This document shows positions 50,847 to 61,517 of a stretch of DNA of 64,000 nucleotides, piece by piece. Position 1 is the first letter of the stretch, and every line of letters begins with the position of its first letter. A model generated the notes under the pieces. That model saw only the letters and a program-made list of their open reading frames with translations, was not told where the DNA came from and ran no database searches. Source of the stretch: an uncultured Acidobacteriota bacterium (GTDB lineage: Bacteria > Acidobacteriota > Vicinamibacteria > Vicinamibacterales > UBA2999); the NCBI GenBank assembly GCA_963779175.1, contig CAVZXA010000007.1:281086-345085 (forward strand), given 5' to 3'. Both the position numbers and the translations under genes were made by a program.

Positions 50847-53800
50847 CTAGGGCACGACCACCGTCTGCGCCGCCGTCGGCGCACTGGCGCCGCAGGGATT
50901 CACGGCGCTGAGGGTGAAGGTGTAGGCGCCAGGTGGCACGGCGGCGGACAGCCCGCGCGTGGGCAGCGGGAACGTGCCGTTGAAGGCCCCGGAGACGTTG
51001 AGCACGAAACCGGTCGTGGCGGGGCCGCTCGCGGCCGGAATCCCACAACAGATACAGGGTGTTCCCGACGTTATACGTCAGGAAGTTCTCGGGCGCCGAG
51101 GGCGCACCCGAACAGGGCCCGGGAACGTGAGCGTTACCGGATTCGACGACGGGCTCGAGCCCGAGCCATTCGCGGCGCGGACGGAGAACGTGTAGGTGCC
51201 CCCGGGGACGCCGTTGAAGGTGAAGCTGTCCGTAAGTCCAAGGGGCAGCGACGCTGACAGCGTGCCACTGACGTCGAGGATGACGCCGCTCGGCGTGCCC
51301 CCCCCGAACGTGTTCCGCCACGAGAGCGCGACCTGCTGACCGTTGACGAGGCCGGCGAGACCGGTGGGCGCCGACGGGGCGACCGGCTGGTTGACGAAGA
51401 CGCGAATCTCGTTCGAGGCGGCGCTTGTCTGCCCGCCGGCCAAGGTTGTGATCCGAAGATAGAACGCTCCGTTGGGGGCGCCGAAGGTGAACACCGGCAT
51501 CGCACTACCGGTGGGGATGGCCGCCAGCACCTGGCCGGGGGCGACGCCGCCCTCCATCACGTAACTCGTAGGTGCCGGCCCGGTCGTGGGCGGGGTCCAC
51601 GTGAGTGTCACGGTGTTGCCGCTGACGACGCGAGCCAGCAGGTTGGTCGGCGGCTGGGGCACGATGAGCGCAGCGCCGACGGTGATCGTCACCGTGGTCA
51701 CGTTGCTCTGGCCGTTGAGGTTGCTGGCGCGGTAACTGAACACGTCGGTGCCGCTGAAGCCCCCGTTGGGCGTGTAGACGAAGCTGCCGTTGCTGGTGAG
51801 CGTCACGCCGCCATGGCTCGTGGGTGCTATCAGGGTGGCCTGCAGCGCCAATCCGCCGGGCGACACGTCGTTGCCCAGCACGCCAGGCGCATTCACACTG
51901 AGCGTCGTCGCGAAGGGCGTCGAGTAGGCATCAGCCACCGCCGTCGGCGCGTTGGGCGCCTGCACGGTGATGCTGACGGTGGCCACGTTGCCCGGCCCCC
52001 CGCTATTCGACGCGCGATAGGTGAACGTGACCTGGCCGGAGAAGCCGGACGCCGGCGTATAGGAGAAGCTGCCGTTCGTGTTGAGCGTGAGGCTGCCGGT
52101 GGCGGGTCCGCTGTTGACGGAGGCGCTCATGCTGCCGCCGCCATTTGACGAGTCATTGGCGAGCAGCCCTGGCACGGCGACCGTCAGTGTCGTCGCGTGC
52201 GGCGTCGTGTAGACGTCGTCGACGCTCGTCGGGGGCAGGACGGGTGCACACGAGCCGGTGACCCGCACGCGGTAGTCGCCTATGGCGTCGAGACCGCTGT
52301 CAGCAGTGCCGACGACGACCGTGTATGCGCCGGACGCTGGCGCGGTGAATGTGGTGGTCACGCTGGGGGCATTCCAGGTGTGGGTAACGAGCTGGCCGCC
52401 CGGTCCGTAGATGCGAATCCACGGCAGGAACGAAGGATCCGTTGTCGACGGCAGGGTCGCGGCGGTCAGCGACACTGTGCCGCCAGTGCAGGCGGAGAAC
52501 GTCCAAGGGTCCAGATCGCCGAGCGCGATGGCGCCGAAGCTATCGACGTTCTCCACCAACGCACCACCCTGATCGCCCGGGCTCTGGAAGTAGCCGCTCG
52601 GGATGCGTAGGGGCGTGAGGGTGTAGTCGTAGATGGCGTCGAGGCCGCTGTCGTTGGTGCCGACGACGACCGTGTAGGTGCCGGGACTCACCGCCGTCAC
52701 CTCGACCTGGGCAGCGAGGACGTTCCACGAATGGTCGAGCAGTGCGCCGGTGGGACCATACACCCGGATCCAGGGGTAGGCGGAGGGGTCGGGGCTGGTG
52801 CCGAGTTCGCCAATGGCGAAGATCAACCGTTTGTTGGGTGCGGTGGTGGTGATGGTCCAGGGGTCGAGGTCGCCGAGGGCGATCCGCCCGGTGTGGTTGC
52901 CGCCGTTGGTGAGGGTGCCGCCTTCGTCGTTGGCGGGCACGGTGAACGACGCGGGCATCCGGACGACCGTGAGGGTGTAGTCGTAGACGGCGTCGAGGCC
53001 GCTGTCGTTGGTGCCGACGACGACCGTGTAGGTGCCGGACTCACCGCCGTCACCTCGACCTGGGCAGCAAGGACGTTCCACGAATGGTCGAGTAGCGCGC
53101 CGGTGGGACCATAGACCCGGATCCAGGGGTAGGCGGAGGCGTCGGGGCTGGTGCCGAGTTCGCCGATGTCGAAAATCAGCCGCTCGTTGGGCGCGGTGGT
53201 GGTGATGGTCCAGGGGTCGAGGTCGCCGATGGTGATGCGTCCGGTGTGGTTGCCGCCGTTGGTGAGGGTGCCGCCTTCGTCGTTGGCGGGCACGGTGAAC
53301 GTTGCGGGGATCCGAACGACCGTGAGGGTGTAGTCGTAGATGGCGTCGAGGCCGCTGTCGTTGGTGCCGACGACGACCGTGTAGGTGCCGGGACTCACCG
53401 CCGTCACCTCGACCTGGGCGGCAAGGACGTTCCACGAATGGTCGAGTAGCGCGCCGGTGGGACCATAGACCCGGATCGCAGGGGTAGGCGGAGGCGTCGG
53501 GGCTGGTGCCGAGTTCGCCGATGTTGAAGATCAGCCGCTCGTTGGGTGCGGTGGTGGTGATGGTCCAGGGGTCGAGGTCGCCGAGGGCAATCCGCCCGGT
53601 GTGGTTGCCGCCGTTGGTGAGGGTGCCGCCTTCGTCGTTGGCGGGCACGGTGAACGACGCGGGCATCCGGACGACCGTGAGGGTGTAGTCGTAGACGGCG
53701 TCGAGGCCGCTGTCGTTGGTGCCGACGACGACCGTGTAGGTGCCGGGACTCACCGCCGTCACCTCGACCTCGGCAGCAAGGACGTTCCACGAATGGTCGA

Positions 53801-54777
53801 GTAGCGCGCCGGTGGGACCATAGACGCGGATCCAGGGGGTAGGCGGAGGCGTCGGGGCTGGTGCCGAGTTCGCCGATGTTGAAGATCAGCCGCTCGTTGG
53901 GCGCGGTGGTGGTGATGGTCCAGGGGTCGAGGTCACCGATGGTGATGCGTCCGGTGTGGTTGCCGCCGTTGGTGAGGGTGCCGCCTTCGTCGTTGGCGGG
54001 CACGGTGAACGTTGCGGGGATCCGAACGACCGTGAGGGTGTAGTCGTAGATGGCGTCGAGGCCGCTGTCGTTGGTGCCGACGACGACCGTGTAGGTGCCG
54101 GGACTCACCGCCGTCACCTCGACCTGGGAAGCAAGAACGTTCCACGAATGGTCGAGTAGCGCGCCGGTGGGACCATAGACCCGGATCCAGGGGTAGGCGG
54201 AGGCGTCGGGGCTGGTGCCGAGTTCGCCGATGTCGAAGATCAGCCGCTCGTTGGGCGCGGTGGTGGTGATGGTCCAGGGGTCGAGGTCGCCGAGGGCAAT
54301 CCGCCCGGTGTGATTGCCGCCGATGGTGAGGGTGCCGCCTTCGTCGCCGCCGCTCACCGCGAGCCCGCCGCCTGGAATCCTGATGGCCGTCACCACGTAA
54401 CTGCCCAGGTCGTTCTGGCCAGAATCGTTGGTAGAGACCCACACCGAGTAGGTGCCGGCTGCAGCCGCGGTGATCTCGACCTGGGCGGCGGCGACGTTCC
54501 ACGCCTGTGTGAGGAGCGTGCCGTTGGGAGCAAACAGGCGGATCCACGGCGTGAACGTCGGGTCGGGTGTCCCCGTTTCGCCTAGGTCGACCAGCAGCCG
54601 CTCGTTGGGCGCGGTGGTGGTGATGGTCCACACATCCACTTCGCCCGCAGAGCTGATGGTGCCAGCGTGATTGCCCCCGTTCGTCAGCGCGCCCTGCGCC
54701 GCCGCGAGGCCCGGGAGCCCCAGCGCCGCTGCCATCACCATCCACACTCGAATCACCGCTGATTTAACGTCGGTCAT
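50847..54777 (-). CDS. Secreted repeat protein A: 7 PPC-like beta domains, 2 Big_9-type Ig domains, 3 FN3 domains; several frameshifts
   Basis: Signal ending AAA-QGALTNGGNH; ~118-aa units (GDLDPW..PWIRVYGPTG..GTYTVVV); GLLAND/NGSFSY; PQPPTNL..VTLTW; ends VVP*. Confidence 0.85.
52574..54344 (-). repeat. Five near-identical ~354-bp intragenic tandem repeats
   Basis: gtcgaggccgctgtcgttggtgccgacgacgaccgtgtaggtgccgg recurs about every 354 nt. Confidence 0.9.
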
Positions 54778-54830
54778 GTGCCCTCGCGCAGGCCGTTCGC
54801 CGCCAACGGCTGAATTGATCCCGTACGCCA

Positions 54831-54864
54831 TCCTATTGCGCAGCGCGGACCCGAACCCTATCAC
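54831..54864 (-). promoter_or_regulatory. Putative ECF promoter of repeat protein A
   Basis: Minus strand GTGATAGG-gttcgggtccgcgc-TGCGCAATAGGA; same blocks and spacing as 58035-58068. Confidence 0.7.
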
Positions 54865-54972
54865 TCGCGCAGAAACTCTCTCGCGCGGGCGCCCACAGGC
54901 CCTCGAGGCGTGCCTGGCGAGGTAGAAAGGCTGCGCGGAGCTGGACTTGCGGGGTGTTGGAGCGGACGTGGG

Positions 54973-57464
54973 TCATGGCGCGAGAGCTGCCAGGTCCTCG
55001 CGCGCGGCGATCAGATACGGCGACGGCGCGCCCGGCTGCTTCTCGAGCACGCGCACGGCGTCCTCCAGCATGGGCCTGGCGGCTGCGGGGCGCTTCTGGC
55101 GATGCAGCACGCGGCCCAGTAGCGACTTGGCAATGCCGACGTTGACATGGTCGGCTGCCAACACCTCCGCGTAGATCCCCAGCGCCTGACGCAGCGTCTG
55201 CTCGGCGGCCGTCAGGTCGTTGCGGATCAGGTGCAGGCGGCCCAGATTCGCCATCACCACGCCTTCCTGGAAGTGGGTGCCGGCCGAGGCGCCGTAGCCG
55301 GCAATGGCGCGACGGAAGGCCGTCTCGGCGGCCGCGAAGTCGTTCCGGCGCAGGGCGTTCAGGCCGATCGCGTTGAGCACGAACGCCGTGCGCCGATGAG
55401 TGGGGCCGTAGGTCCGTTCCTGCGTCGCGAGGGCCTGACGCAGCAGCGGTGCGCCTTCCTCGTGTTTGTCCTGACGGGCGAGCACCTGGGCCAGGGTGGT
55501 CTGGGCGGACGCCGTTTCCGGATGCGCGTCGCCGTACCGCTGCAGGAAGATCGCCAGAGCCTCCCGGTCCACCGTCTCGGCCTCGGCGAACCGGCCCCGC
55601 GACGACAGGATGGCGCCTTGATTGATCAGCAGGTGACCGATGTCAGGATGGGTCGGGCCGCGGGCCTCGCGCGTCACGGCCAGCGCGCGCTGGTTGACGG
55701 CCTCGGCGGCATCCATGTCGTCCATGTAGAAGCGTGTTTCGGCCAACGCGGCCATTGCCTGGGCGCGTTCGCCAATCGCCGCCGGCAGCGCCTCGTAGCG
55801 GCGGACCGCGTCTTCGAGACTGGCCGCGGCCGTGGCGTATTCGCCTTTCTCGCGCTGGACGCGGCCGAGCACGGTCAGGGCGTTGACGAGTACCGGGTGA
55901 TCCGCTGCCCCGGCGCGTTCGACGGCGCCACGAGCGTCGTGCACAAGGGTCTCGGCCTCGGGCAGGCGCGCCTGATCGAGCCGCAGCGAGGCCAGCGCCA
56001 CCATGCTGGTGGCCACATCGACGTGGGCCGGGCCAAGATGGGCGCGCCGCGCGTCGAGGGCGTCGTTGAGCAGACGGTCGGCCAAGTCGAGCGCCCCGAG
56101 TTCGTGGTGGATGCCGCCCAGGGTGTGGAACAACTCGGCCTGCACCAGCGGGTCGGCCGACAGACCGCGCGCTTCCTGCACGCCGCGCTCGAGCAGCGTC
56201 ATCACGCGCAGCTCGTTCGGCGGGGCCGAGCCGTTCTCGCCGCCGCTGAAGACGCCGAGCACGAAGCGCAGCAGCCGGGCGCTGCGTGCCGCTTCAGCCT
56301 GAGTCTGTGCTCGCGAGACGGCCAGGCGTTCGGCGTAGAACCAGCCGCTGCCCGCGGCCATCATGATGGCCACAGCGGCCGCCGCGAGGGCGCGCCGCTG
56401 GCGGCCGACGAACTTGCGCGCGCGGTACACCGCCGAATCCGGGCGCGCCGCCAGCGGGCGACCGACGAGCAGTGCCTCGAGGTCACGCCGCATCGCGCCC
56501 GCCGTCGCGTAGCGGCGTTCGGGGTCGGGATGTGTCGCGGTGTCGCACAGGACGACGAGGTCGGCGGCGCCGGCCGGCCCCGCGCAGTCGCGCCGAACCA
56601 GGGCTGCCGGGCGCTGCCATCGGTGTCGGCTGCCAGCAGTTCGCGGAGCACGACCCCCAGTGAGTAGACATCGGTCTGCACGCCCGACGGGGCGCCGGCC
56701 AGCTCCTCGGGCGCCGCGTAGCCGGGGCTCAGGAAGCGCAGCGGTCCGGTGTGAGGGCTGAGGGCATCCAGGCTCTCGAGCTGGCGGGCGATGCCAAAAT
56801 CGAGGAGCTTCGGCGTGCCGTCGGCGGTGACCAGGATGTTCGACGGCTTGATGTCGCGATGCACGACCAGGCGTCCGTGCGCGTACTGCACCGCGGCGCA
56901 GATCTGTCCGACCAGTCGCAGGCGTCCGGGAATGTCGGTGCCCTGGGTGCGGCAGTGCTCGTCGAGCGTGCGGCCCGCGACGTACTCCATCGCAAACCAC
57001 GGCGTGCCGCCCTCGAGCGTGCCGGCGTCGATGATGCTGGCGATGGCCGGATGATGCAGTTGCGCCAGCGTGCGCTGTTCGCGCCAGAAGCGCTCGCGCC
57101 GATCGGGCGACACCCAGGCATCGCGCAACAGCTTGATGGCGACGCGGCTTCCGATGTCGTCGCGCTCGGCGAGATGCACCACGCCGGAGCCGCCTTCCCC
57201 GAGCCGCGCGGTGAGCCGATAGGGGCCGATGCGCGCGCCCACGCCGGCCGAGTCGGTGCCGTCGAAGAGGTCACGCGCGACATCGGCGGTCGACGTGTCG
57301 AGCACCGAGTCTTCCCGGTCTCCGGCGATGAGGGCCTGCACGTGCGCCAGCAGGTCGGCGTCGCCGGCGCAGGCCTTGGCGACGTAGGCGGCGCGCTCGC
57401 CCGGCGGCAGGTCGACGGCGGCGTGGAAGATCTGCTGAACGTGGTCCCAGCGGGCGGCGTCCAT
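54973..57464 (-). CDS. ECF-associated membrane Ser/Thr kinase with extracytoplasmic TPRs; frameshift near 56570
   Basis: MDAARWDHVQQIFHAAV..ER N-terminus; GEGGSG, VAIK, HRDIKPSN, DFG, YAAPE; YRARKFVGR + TM; TPRs with LGPAH/GDAHP motifs. Confidence 0.9.
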
Positions 57465-57476
57465 CGATTCCCCTGG

Positions 57477-58025
57477 TCAGCGGCGGCTGAGCTCGGAGTT
57501 CAACCAGGCGCGCGCCACTCGCCAGTCGCGTAACACCGTCACCTCGGAGACGCCCACGACCTCGGCGATCTCGCCCATGCTCAGGCCACCGAAGAAGCGG
57601 GCTTCGACCACCTGCGCCTGGCGCGGACTGACGTGGGCCAGTTCGACCAGCGCGTCGTCGAGCGCCAGGACCCGCGACGGGGTGGGCGGGCCGAAGATCT
57701 CGTCGTCGAATTCGACCAGCGCGGCGTCGGCACCGGCGGGGCGTTTGAGCGCGTTGCGGCGGCGAGCCGCCTCGACCAGGACCTGCCGCATGGCGCGTGC
57801 CGCGATCCGCTTGAAGTGCAACGGCGATGTCGATTCGAAGTCTGGCGAGCGCGCCAGCTTGAGCCACGCTTCGTGCACGAGTACCGTCGGACTCATCGTG
57901 CGGTCGGCCGGGCCGCGCCCGACGCGCGACGCCAGACGGCGCAACTCTTCGTAGGCGGCGACGTAGTGCGCGTCGAGCGTGTCGCGAGCGGACTCGGCGT
58001 CGGGGGCGGGGTGCGAACGATCCAT
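57477..58025 (-). CDS. ECF sigma factor, TIGR02999 / kinase-associated type
   Basis: YEELRRLA; RTMSPTVLVHEAWLKL; ARAMRQVLVEAARRRNALKR; VVEARFFGGLS..EIAEVVGVSEVTVLRDWRVARAWL. Confidence 0.93.
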   Translation of the reverse strand: MDRSHPAPDAESARDTLDAHYVAAYEELRRLASRVGRGPADRTMSPTVLVHEAWLKLARSPDFESTSPLHFKRIAARAMRQVLVEAARRRNALKRPAGADAALVEFDDEIFGPPTPSRVLALDDALVELAHVSPRQAQVVEARFFGGLSMGEIAEVVGVSEVTVLRDWRVARAWLNSELSRR

Positions 58026-58034
58026 CGGCGTAGG

Positions 58035-58068
58035 GTGATAGGTCTCGGACGGCTTTTGCGCAATAGGA
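58035..58068 (+). promoter_or_regulatory. Putative ECF promoter of repeat protein B
   Basis: GTGATAGG-tctcggacggcttt-TGCGCAATAGGA; matches the 54831-54864 motif. Confidence 0.7.
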
Positions 58069-58165
58069 GTCTAGAGCAAGACGCGGCCGGCCAGCGCAGG
58101 AAGTCTGCGGCGCCACGAGGTCGTGTCTTGGGGCTTTTTGTTCTGCCCCCACCTGGAGTTCTGAG

Positions 58166-61100
58166 ATGCACATTCGCTCCTTCGTCGTGACGATGTTGGC
58201 CGGGTTGGCGGTGTTGTTGTCGGTGCCGGGGAACGCCCGAGCCCAGGGCGCCATCACCAATGGCGAAAATCACACCGGCACCATCGCCGTCAGCGGCGGA
58301 ATCGACCAGTGGACGTTTTCGGCCAACCAGGGCGATTCGATTGTGCTCAATCTCGGCGAGGTGCTGCGGGTGCCCGATTCGGGGTTCTCTCCGTGGATTC
58401 GGCTGTATGGTCCGACGGGCGCGCAGATTGGCGGCGACTCCTTCTACGGGGCGCTGGTGGCGCAGATTGCCACGGTTGCTCCGCTCACCGGCACCTACAC
58501 GGTGCGCGTGGCGGCCGGCTATCCGGGGTACACAGCGGTGGGCGACTACCGGCTCATCCTTGCGCGCGTGCCCGGCCAGCCCGTGGTTCCCGGTGGCGAT
58601 CAAGGCGGCCCGATGACCAACGGGGTGAATCACGTCGGCCGGATCGAACTCGGGGACCTGGACCAGTGGACCTTCACGGCCAATCAAGGCGAGAGCCTGG
58701 TCGTGGAGATCGGCGAAATCGCCGTCGGTTCGGGCGTGCCCGACCCGAACTTCTACCCGTGGATTCGCCTCTACGGCCCGACTGGTGTCCAGATCGGCGG
58801 CGACAGTTTCTACGGTGCGGCCGTGGCGCAAGTGGCCACCACGGCGCCGCTCACCGGCACCTATACGGTGCTCGTGGCTGCCGGCTACCCGAACTACGCG
58901 GCCGCCGGCGACTATCGTCTCGTGCTGGCGCAGGTGCCGGGCACACCCGTCGTCGACGAGGGCGACCATGGCGGGCGCCTGGCCAACGGGGTCAATCACG
59001 ACGGCCGCATCGAGGTCGGCGACCTCGACCAGTGGACGTTCACGGCCAATCAAGGCGAGAGCCTGGTCGTGAGCGTCGGCGAACGGGTGGTGGGACCGGG
59101 TGTGCCCGACCCGGGGTTCTATCCGTGGATCCGTCTCTATGGTCCGACGGGCGCGCAGATTGGCGGCGACTCCTTCTACGGGGCGCTGGTGGCGCAGGCC
59201 GTGACCGTCGCCCCCCTGACCGGCACCTACACGGTGCTGGTGTCGGCCGGCTACCCGAACTACGCGGCCGCCGGCGACTATCGCCTGATCCTGGCGCAGA
59301 TGCCGAGCCGACCCGTGATCGAGACCGATGACGACAACGATCACGATGGCCCAATGGCCAACGGGGTGAATCACGTCGGCCGGGATCGAACTCGGGGACC
59401 TGGACCAGTGGACCTTCACGGCCAATCAAGGCGAGAGCCTGGTCGTGGAGATCGGCGAAATCGCCGTCGGTTCGGGCGTGCCCGATCCGAACTTCTACCC
59501 GTGGATTCGCCTCTACGGCCCGACTGGTGTCCAGATCGGCGGCGACAGTTTCTACGGTGCGGCCGTGGCGCAAGTGGCCACCACGGCGCCGCTCACCGGC
59601 ACCTATACGGTGCTCGTGGCGGCCGGCTACCCGAACTACGCGGCCGCCGGCGACTATCACCTCGTGCTGGCGCAGATGCCGGGCGACCCGGCCGTGGGCG
59701 AAGGCGACCACGGTGGACGGATGACCAACGGAGGCAATCACGACGGCCGCATTGAGGTCGGCGACCTCGACCAGTGGACGTTCACGGCCAATCAGGGCGA
59801 ACGCCTGGTCGTGAACATCGGCGAACGGGTGGTGGGACCGGGTGTGCCCGACCCGGGGTTCTATCCGTGGATCCGCCTCTATGGTCCGACGGGCGCGCAG
59901 ATTGGCGGCGACTCCTTCTACGGGGCGCTGGTGGCGCAGGCCGTGACCGTCGCCCCCCTGACCGGCACCTACACGGTGCTGGTGTCGGCCGGCTACCCGA
60001 GCTACGCGGCCGCCGGCGACTATCGCCTGATCCTGGCGCAGATGCCGGGAAGCCCGGTCGTCGACGCGGGCAATCATGGCGGCCCCATGGCCACCGCCAC
60101 CGACTATCCCGGCCGGATCGAACTCGGGGACCTCGATCCGTGGACCTTCTCGGCCAACCAGGGTTCGGCGCTCACCGTGACCATCACCGAGGTGCCGGTC
60201 GGCCCCGGCGTGCCGGATCCGGCGTTCTATCCGTGGATTCGTCTCTACGGCCCGAACGGCGTGCAAATCGGCGGCGACAGCTTCTACGGAGCCTCGGGTG
60301 CGCAAATCATCACCACGGCGTCGTTGACCGGCACCTACACGGTGCTCGTGTCGGCCGGCTACCCGAACTATCCGGCGGCGGGCGACTATCGGCTGCGGGT
60401 GCTGGGCGCCGCTGCACCGCCGACGCCACCCAACAGCACTGACGACGTCTACGCGACGCCGCAGGGCAAGGCGCTCGCCGTCGCGGCCCCGGGCGTGGTG
60501 GCCAACGACAACCTGGCGGGGGGCGCCACGGTGGCCCTGGTGACGGGCCCGGCGCGCGGCACGGTGACGCTGAATGGCGATGGCAGCTTCACGTACGTGC
60601 CCAACGGCAATGCCGGAGGGGTCGACGCGTTCACCTATCGCGCTGCCAACGCGTCTGGTCCCGGCAACATCGCCACCGTCCGGATCACGGTTGGCGAGAC
60701 CACGCCGGGGGCACCGAGCGGGTTGGCGGCCGCGCTCATTGCCGGCAATGACGTGACCTTGCGCTGGCTGCCGCCGGTTGACGTCGCCACGCCCACCGGC
60801 TATGTCCTCGAGGCCGGGGTGACCCCGGGCGAGGTGCTGGCCTCGGTGCCGACTGGCAGCGCGCTGCCCGTCTTCAGCTTCCCGGCGCCGACCGGCGTGT
60901 TCTGGGTCCGAGTCCGCGCGATCGTGGACGGTGAACTCACCGCACCCTCGAACGACGTCCGCGTGCACGCGAACGTGGTGGCACCGCCGTCGGTTCCGGC
61001 CAACCTGCTCGGGGCCGTGGACGGTTCGGGCCTGGCTCTGGGCTGGCGAAACACCTACGACGGGGGCGCGCCGACGGGGCTGGTCGTGGATGTGGCCGGC

Positions 61101-61517
61101 CCGGTCGCCGGGTCCGTGGCCGTCGCCCTCGACGAGCGGTTCACGTTCGCCGGGGTGCCAGCGGGCACCTATACGTTCACCGTCCGCGCCACCAACGCGG
61201 GTGGCGTGAGCGCCGCCTCCAACCCCGTGACGCTCACATTCCCCAACGGGTGCAGCGGCGCGCCGCAACCGCCGGAACGGTTCCTGGCGCAGGCTGTCGG
61301 GAGCACCGTGCAGCTGCTTTGGGATCCGCCCAGCGCCGGTCCAGCGGCCACCAGTTACCTGTTGACCGCCTCGGGTACTGTCGCCGGGACGATGCCGACG
61401 ACGAGCCGGATGCTGCGGCGCGACGTGGCCCCCGGCACCTACACGCTGTTTGTGACAGCGGTCAACGCGTGCGGGGCCAGCGCCCCGACACCGCCGGTCA
61501 CCGTCGTGGTGCCATGA
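58166..61517 (+). CDS. Secreted repeat protein B: 6 PPC-like domains, 1 Big_9-type Ig domain, 3 FN3 domains; frameshift near 59385
   Basis: Signal ending ARA-QGAITNGENH; ~122-aa units (GDLDQW..PWIRLYGPTG..GTYTVLV); tail colinear with protein A, ending VVVP*. Confidence 0.87.
58606..60080 (+). repeat. Four ~366-bp intragenic tandem repeats in ABAB order
   Basis: Units 2/4 contain EIGEIAVGSGVPDPNFYP; units 3/5 contain GERVVGPGVPDPGFYP, nearly identical at DNA level. Confidence 0.88.

Follow-up and report, generated by a model that had tools for sequence, protein, structure and literature searches.

The window examined here is a stretch of 64,000 nucleotides from the genome of an uncultured Acidobacteriota bacterium (GenBank assembly GCA_963779175.1, contig CAVZXA010000007.1, positions 281,086 to 345,085), and all coordinates given below are positions within it. 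The subject is a bipartite, promoter-like element that occurs twice in the window. The two copies flank a minus-strand operon that encodes an extracytoplasmic-function (ECF) sigma factor and a Ser/Thr kinase-TPR protein, and each copy points outward at a gene for a PPC/Big-repeat protein. The features of the locus are arranged as follows.

58035–58068, plus strand: right promoter-like site, with TGATAG at 58036–58041 and CGCAAT at 58059–58064, the latter within TGCGCAATAGGA (58057–58068)
54831–54864, minus strand: left promoter-like site, with TGATAG at 54863–54858 and CGCAAT at 54840–54835
57477–58025, minus strand: ECF sigma factor gene, 182 aa (PF07638, 1.8e-38; TIGR02999, 160 bits against a cut-off of 126.15)
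54973–57464, minus strand: Ser/Thr kinase-TPR gene, in two overlapping frames (57464–56361 and 57000–54973)
58166–61517, plus strand: right target gene, with signal peptide, PPC repeats and Big_9/cadherin-like/fn3 (frames 58166–59755 and 59445–61517)
51078–54777, minus strand: left target gene, paralogous to the right-hand one, with signal peptide, PPC repeats and Big_9/cadherin-like/fn3 (frames 54777–53404 and 53762–51078)

The bipartite element in the window and in related genomes

An earlier, sequence-only reading of the window had described an exact 8-mer and an exact 12-mer, with the same 14-nt spacing, upstream of both repeat-protein genes. A pattern search of the window with up to 3 mismatches allowed bears this out. 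The arrangement GTGATAGG-N14-TGCGCAATAGGA is found in two copies, at 54864–54831 on the minus strand and at 58035–58068 on the plus strand, both with 0 mismatches, and none of 100 dinucleotide-preserving shuffles gave any match. The search for the pair was extended to all 10 contigs of the genome, which total 5,585,140 bases at ~70% G+C, and allowed spacers of 12–16 nt and up to 5 mismatches. The two window sites are the only ones with 0–3 mismatches, the runner-up having 4 mismatches and a 15-nt spacer. The left site follows the stop of the kinase-TPR gene (54973) and precedes the left PPC gene, whose ATG is at 54777.

The spacers read GTTCGGGTCCGCGC at the left site and TCTCGGACGGCTTT at the right site. 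They have TCGG in common, which amounts to 4 of 14 bases and leaves 24 of the 34 bases of the whole motif identical; these counts agree with the earlier ones, as do the leaders to the ATG of 53 nt (ATG 54777, minus) and 97 nt (ATG 58166, plus). When the two sites are anchored and compared without gaps, 21 of 60 bases are identical upstream, 4 of 14 in the spacer and 16 of 53 downstream, where chance would give a fraction of 0.29, and the blocks themselves are identical at 20 of 20 positions. Because the flanks are at chance level while the blocks are perfectly kept, the motif is not a duplication relic. Two conserved blocks at fixed spacing around a freely varying spacer have the layout of a promoter, and the placement upstream of genes, the matching orientation and a distance compatible with a leader likewise fit one. 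No Rfam family matched 53000–60000 at E values up to 1, and the leader RNAs downstream of the sites show nothing notable in structure (z-scores of -1.49, -0.57 and -0.14). A direct repeat inside the motif, ATAGG...ATAGG, was considered and dropped, being absent from the orthologues in the related genomes G017 and G013.

A total of 41 related genomes were searched for orthologues of the ECF sigma factor. The closest are in G017 (71% identity), G013 (70%), G024 (61%) and G012 (57%), and the next matches are at 53% or below. Both G017 and G013 have the same operon with a single divergent PPC-Big gene. Their site, cTGATAGc-N14-TGCGCAAG(T/G)GGA, is separated from the ECF ATG by the same 10 nt as in the window and is aimed at the PPC-Big gene. 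In G012 and G024 the site is TGACGG-N15-TGCGCA(A/T) and is aimed at a lipoprotein gene (G012) or at a gene for a DUF5362 membrane protein (G024). All four genomes have the site in the same position and orientation as the right window site. The core is thus tied to the sigma factor/kinase pair and not to the PPC genes, because it persists beside an unrelated neighbour gene. Among the 41 relatives, ECF-adjacent sites are found in the five genomes with the closest ECF orthologues (G000, G013, G017, G012 and G024), and the seven other listed ECF paralogues of the window genome (43–46% identical) have no site within 5 kb. The earlier reading had named a lack of block conservation in orthologues as the sign of a mere duplication relic; with the blocks kept in the orthologues and the flanks at chance, that possibility is contradicted.

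The pattern TGAYRG-N17-CGCAWTG gave 30 matches in the 41 relatives against 6 for the control, and an ECF gene lies within 1.5 kb at only two of them, both beside ECF orthologues. Three short-core matches, in G012, G014 and G005, were set aside as chance matches to an unrelated element with no ECF gene nearby. These loci (L225, L226 and L231) hold a distinct conserved intergenic element with two copies of TATAGTCCG ~45 nt apart.

An oriented core linked to a sigma factor/kinase subfamily and to envelope-protein genes

The comparison was broadened to 164 ECF loci from several phyla, made up of the window, 4 relatives, 79 species genomes and 80 metagenome contigs. The pattern TGA[CT][AG][GA]-N17-CGCA[AT][TG] was sought within 400 nt of the ECF start. 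A site that points away from the ECF gene is present at 82 of the 164 loci, and a site that points toward it at 1. Among the 54 genome loci with no strict site, a version with up to 2 mismatches points away from the ECF gene in 33 and toward it in 6. The kinase gene directly follows the ECF gene in 147 of the 164 loci; 11 are too short to judge and 6 are without it.

Over the homologous loci the consensus core is TGAYRG-N17-CGCA(A/T)(T/G). The scanning core that had been proposed from the window alone, TGATAG-N17-CGCAATA, essentially matches the TGAYRG-N17-CGCAAT core obtained here. A logo of 39 distinct sites is asymmetric, with TGACGG, a T-tract and an invariant CGCA followed by A-T-G. A purine is found 37 nt past the first T in 38 of the 39 distinct sites, which is consistent with a transcription start 8–9 nt after CGCAAT. 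The weaker variants of block 2 (TACGCA, GGCGCA, TCCGCA, TTCGCA and CGCGCA) retain CGCA(A/T) and lose the TG, and the palindrome TGCGCA is therefore incidental.

At six Terriglobia-type loci (L037, L039, L053, L076, L097 and L100) the spacer has a second (T)GCGC(A) 8–9 nt before block 2, for example TGCGCctttTGCGCA. It creates a direct as well as an inverted repeat, and the window has no such second copy.

The strand on which the element acts was approached through its context. The reverse complement, TGCGCA-N15-C(C/T)(A/G)TCA, has 29 matches in the 911,485 bases of 80 species-genome loci, and 26 of the 29 are directly upstream of the ECF gene, on the ECF strand. Three sites are found away from the ECF start (L110, L111 and L083), and at these a gene is present only on the side that the orientation given in the list above faces. 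The extra site at L110 and L111 lies behind the kinase gene, 33–34 nt before a same-strand ATG with a Shine-Dalgarno sequence, as the left site of the window does; the site at L083 precedes a gene for an outer-membrane barrel protein. A genome-wide search of five genomes gave 37 matches against 4 for the reversed control. It includes the stand-alone intergenic sites L118, L123, L124, L132, L133 and L144 in the genomes of L110 and L111 (two Myxococcota), which have no ECF gene within 1.5 kb. The stand-alone and second sites are followed by a start codon with a Shine-Dalgarno sequence 21–55 nt past the end of TGCGCA, a point that is 6 nt before the end of the motif as first described. The L118 site abuts the apparent end of a same-strand gene, on a reading of the flank made with no family check. 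On the other side, an in-frame, open ECF ATG overlaps the last base of the block on the ECF strand (...TC-ATG) in 41 of the 82 sites, and in the window, G017 and G013 the ECF ATG is only 10 nt from the block. The block cannot be the -10 element of the ECF gene, because an ATG that overlaps it or stands 10 nt away leaves no room for a start site.

The genes that the sites face encode proteins with signal peptides or lipoboxes. The families represented are DUF5362, Adhesin_E, Bor, outer-membrane beta-barrel proteins and glycine-rich lipoproteins, to which the window adds its two PPC/Big-repeat proteins. DUF5362 occurs both at a stand-alone site (L123) and at an ECF-adjacent site (L033). The downstream open reading frames (ORFs) were called with a crude GC3 heuristic whose starts are unreliable, and the calls were used only for the presence of an ORF. 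A putative regulon of envelope proteins such as this is the kind expected of an ECF sigma factor.

Candidate promoters of the ECF sigma factor

It is quite probable, as judged from these sequence comparisons, that the two sites are -35/-10 promoters used by the ECF sigma factor encoded between them. The sequence-only reading had put forward a promoter for the adjacent ECF factor on the strength of the two window copies, and the proposal gains support from the conserved core, its orientation, the purine at +37 and the ECF43-like hallmarks of the protein described below. TGATAG, as the -35 element, would be contacted by region 4 of the sigma factor, and CGCAAT, as the -10 element 17 nt beyond it, by region 2. 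The first transcribed nucleotide would lie ~8–9 nt past CGCAAT, at predicted positions of ~58073 on the plus strand and ~54826 on the minus strand. The mRNAs, with leaders of ~93 and ~49 nt, would be translated into the two secreted surface proteins with PPC/Big repeats, which are paralogues. The sigma factor probably becomes active only on phosphorylation by the membrane Ser/Thr kinase-TPR protein transcribed with it, with T47 as the residue of interest. Activation by a kinase is suggested because the acidic, core-RNA-polymerase-binding motif of sigma-2.2 appears to be replaced in this protein and the conserved T47 is present. Recognition by the window sigma factor, the start sites and the control by phosphorylation are predictions.

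Several observations weigh against this interpretation. Under the pattern used, 82 of the 164 homologous loci have no site. Across 19 genomes of the genus the core shortened to TGATAG-N17-CGCAA had 8 matches, fewer than the 15 of the reversed-pattern control, and the short core alone is not specific in these GC-rich genomes. Canonical ECF promoters, for example those of sigma-E and sigma-W, have a -35 element of GGAAC or TGAAAC followed by a T-tract and, at 16–17 nt, a CGT-type -10 element. The blocks TGAYRG and CGCAAT differ from these in having neither AAC in the -35 nor CGT in the -10. The reverse complement, which in most relatives reads TGCGCA-N16-CGTC, resembles a textbook autoregulatory ECF promoter and is located upstream of the ECF gene, so that only context can decide on the strand. 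The assembly has frameshifts in the kinase gene and in both target genes (see below), and no RNA runs were listed for 54600–58400.

To these points is added the relation between the -35 element and the sigma-4 helix, which in the window protein reads VSEVTVLRDWRVARAWL. The -35 variant of the window, TGATAG in place of TGACGG, is found with the sigma-4 sequence of the window in one lineage only. Positions 4–5 of the -35 element were tabulated against the residue x of the sigma-4 motif S-E-x-T. With x = A they are CG at 48 loci, CA at 22, TA at 1 and TG at 1, with no site at 71; with x = V, TA at 3 (one lineage), CA at 1 and none at 2; with x = I, TA at 1; with x = E, CA at 4; with x = S, CG at 1 and none at 4; and with x = T, P or unread, none at 5. 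The raw table (V in the window lineage and mostly A elsewhere, against TA and CG) is suggestive. An independent-pairs test for covariation on a quick tree of the 82 site-bearing ECF proteins found 1 independent pair on supported branches and 5 on all branches (p = 1), and had no power. The table finds no support once relatedness is considered and is not counted as evidence.

The alternative explanations differ in what they make of the same facts. One idea is that the ECF-kinase operon is autoregulated from the right site, whose minus strand would supply the promoter as TGCGCA, 16 nt and CTATC/CGTC, with the left site as a decaying copy. In its favour, CGTC is the classic -10 of ECF promoters, autoregulation is usual for ECF genes according to the main text of PMC7826278, and 26 of 80 genome loci have the reverse complement immediately before the ECF gene on the ECF strand. 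This idea was rejected on the ATG overlap, the gene-side context and the asymmetric logo. The supposed -10 is overlapped by the ECF ATG in half of the 82 sites, as noted above, and is 10 nt from it in the window; no gene lies on the side that it requires at the stand-alone sites, at the left site or at the second sites of L110 and L111; and L118 would face back into the apparent end of the preceding gene. The conserved A-T-G and the purine at +37 would moreover fall upstream of a -35, and the left site is perfectly kept though its flanks are randomised, which does not suit a decaying copy. The chance that this explanation is correct is very slim. Smaller still, and close to negligible, is the probability of a functionless relic left by duplication of the repeat genes. 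The downstream genes are paralogous and a shared upstream stretch could be inherited, but the blocks are intact amid chance-level surroundings and are kept in orthologues. The core is also kept across phyla at genes that are not paralogous to the window targets, and the differing spacers exclude that these cross-phylum matches are contamination by a single sequence.

An operator for another DNA-binding regulator, merely travelling with these loci, is improbable. The link between the sigma factor and the DNA is drawn from sequence comparison, block 2 is often the palindrome TGCGCA, and the second (T)GCGC(A) 8–9 nt upstream in some of the Terriglobia-type loci (L053, L097 and L037) could suit a dimeric binder. 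However, only the ECF gene (164 loci) and the kinase gene (147) are common to the loci, with no other DNA-binding gene shared, and the palindrome is not conserved, all variants keeping CGCA(A/T). Asymmetric blocks with a fixed 17-nt spacing and a fixed orientation, 21–55 nt from start codons, have the geometry of a promoter. Promoters of the housekeeping sigma factor in front of surface-protein genes would account for some of this geometry, as the TGAC of most relatives matches the centre of TTGACA, CGCAAT shares AAT with TATAAT and a spacing of 17–18 nt fits. This explanation is nonetheless highly improbable. A consensus scan of both strands of 54700–58300, which required 9 or more of the 12 bases of TTGACA/TATAAT, including A and T at positions 2 and 6 of the -10, found 0 sigma-70-type sites, and the element has G at the position of the essential -11 A. 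Neither the conserved GG of block 1 nor the CGC of block 2 belongs to the housekeeping consensus. Its occurrence is restricted to the surroundings or the regulon of a single ECF subfamily; neither that consensus nor those elements are at issue elsewhere, with two sites in 5.59 Mb and none near the other listed ECF paralogues, as described above.

Recognition of both sites by the sigma factor encoded between them, the preferred explanation, has a further consequence for the operon. In the 41 of 82 sites with an overlap, the ECF start codon covers the first base of the -35 block (...CAT|GACGG). The T-tract and CC beside the -35 block read GGAAAAAC on the ECF strand, at the distance of a ribosome-binding site, and this is likely to be the ribosome-binding site of the sigma gene. 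These bases may have a double role, in the target promoter and in translating the sigma mRNA. Because the start of the sigma gene coincides with the -35 box of its presumed target promoter, or is no more than 10 nt away from it, the sigma factor-kinase operon would be transcribed across that promoter in antisense. The two could form an interlocked module, in which active holoenzyme on the target promoter throttles production of the sigma factor and kinase, a negative feedback in place of the usual positive ECF autoregulation; this is a speculative extension and is considered rather unlikely.

The operon, its predicted targets and known kinase-coupled systems

The kinase gene starts 13 nt past the stop of the sigma gene. 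The motifs of its catalytic domain are intact (GEGGSG, VAIK, HRDIKPSN, DFG and APE), and the second frame comprises the transmembrane and TPR part that ends at 54973. No anti-sigma domain was found in a Pfam scan of the neighbours of the window ECF gene. The break between the two kinase frames was compared with short-read contigs from four DNA runs and with relatives. The orthologue in G017 is a single continuous frame, and contigs with one extra C behind 56577 are present in X1 (depth 3.48 of 7.58) and X4 (3.31 of 3.31); by frame arithmetic this extra C joins the two frames. Assembly error or strain variation, rather than death of the gene, probably accounts for the break near 56577. Summed contig depth over the four runs rises to 206–402 at 56664–57017, the region of the catalytic loop and DFG, and is below 10 elsewhere. 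This spike most likely reflects kinase contigs of other organisms at 90% likeness and not copy number.

The two target genes are old paralogues, with 133 of 307 residues (43%) identical between the proteins and 57% identity over the aligned codons. The right-hand gene has single-ORF orthologues in G017 (1098 aa) and G013 (992 aa). One X1 contig links 58879 to 59622, skipping 742 nt, a join that by frame arithmetic fuses both right-hand frames with the loss of ~two PPC repeats. The split target genes suggest repeat-number variation or mis-assembly of tandem repeats, and the short-read contigs overall suggest that the frameshifts arise from assembly error or strain variation.

The sigma-2.2 segment of the window protein is S45-P46-T47-V48, with no acidic motif, and in nearly all homologues it reads (S/N/T)PT(A/T/V)LV. 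In members of the group ECF43 the acidic sigma-2.2 motif is replaced by uncharged residues together with a phospho-acceptor Thr, and STTA and QTTA segments are described for the group (main texts of PMC8999054 and PMC13147305). SPTV fits this description, the correspondence being judged by position in the family alignment. The window protein may thus be termed an ECF43-like, kinase-coupled sigma factor, with its group membership assigned by these hallmarks. The ECF orthologue of G024 (L033, 9306–9920, minus strand) has an open frame with no ATG, GTG or TTG across roughly its first 100 conserved residues. An unusual start codon, a sequencing error or a damaged gene could each explain this.

Kinase-activated ECF sigma factors are widespread in rarely cultured soil and freshwater phyla. 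An oriented motif, TGAYRG-N17-CGCAAT, would make the regulons of this subfamily predictable from sequence alone, and those predicted so far comprise adhesin-like repeat proteins, lipoproteins, small DUF5362 membrane proteins and outer-membrane barrels. It also offers concrete reporter constructs for the study of phosphorylation control. A word of warning is that a same-strand or strand-blind search upstream of such sigma genes may mistake the element for a TGCGCA/CGTC autoregulatory promoter.

The window-type element shares with canonical ECF promoters its bipartite form, the fixed 17-nt spacing and, in most relatives, a T-rich stretch after the -35 block, and the predicted regulon is, as is usual for these, small and clustered beside the sigma gene. 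Unlike in the canonical case, the promoter beside the window sigma gene would drive the divergent neighbour and not the sigma gene. The absence of a same-strand target motif upstream of the sigma gene, and activity controlled by another layer, are reminiscent of the non-autoregulated groups of the ECF32/HrpL type as these are presented in the main text of PMC7826278. In contrast to those groups, a conserved target promoter adjoins the window-type sigma gene on the opposite strand.

Two kinase-activated ECF examples are named as studied in the main texts searched, EcfP/PknT of Vibrio parahaemolyticus and EcfK/PknS of Xanthomonas citri, both proteobacterial. The main texts of PMC7826278, PMC8999054, PMC8103513, PMC13147305 and PMC9993120 (the scope of this search) give no consensus for ECF43 target promoters. 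With EcfP/PknT and EcfK/PknS the window pair shares an ECF gene followed by a Hanks-type kinase gene and no adjacent anti-sigma gene. Common to it and to the ECF43 systems, as described in the main texts of PMC8999054, PMC8103513 and PMC13147305, are targets with envelope functions, predicted ones in the window, and probably, going by position in the family alignment, the non-acidic sigma-2.2 with a conserved Thr. Unlike the two proteobacterial pairs, that of the window belongs to an Acidobacteriota-like genome and its kinase carries a C-terminal TPR region. Its predicted targets are PPC/Big-repeat surface proteins, whereas those of EcfP and EcfK are polymyxin resistance or a type VI secretion system.

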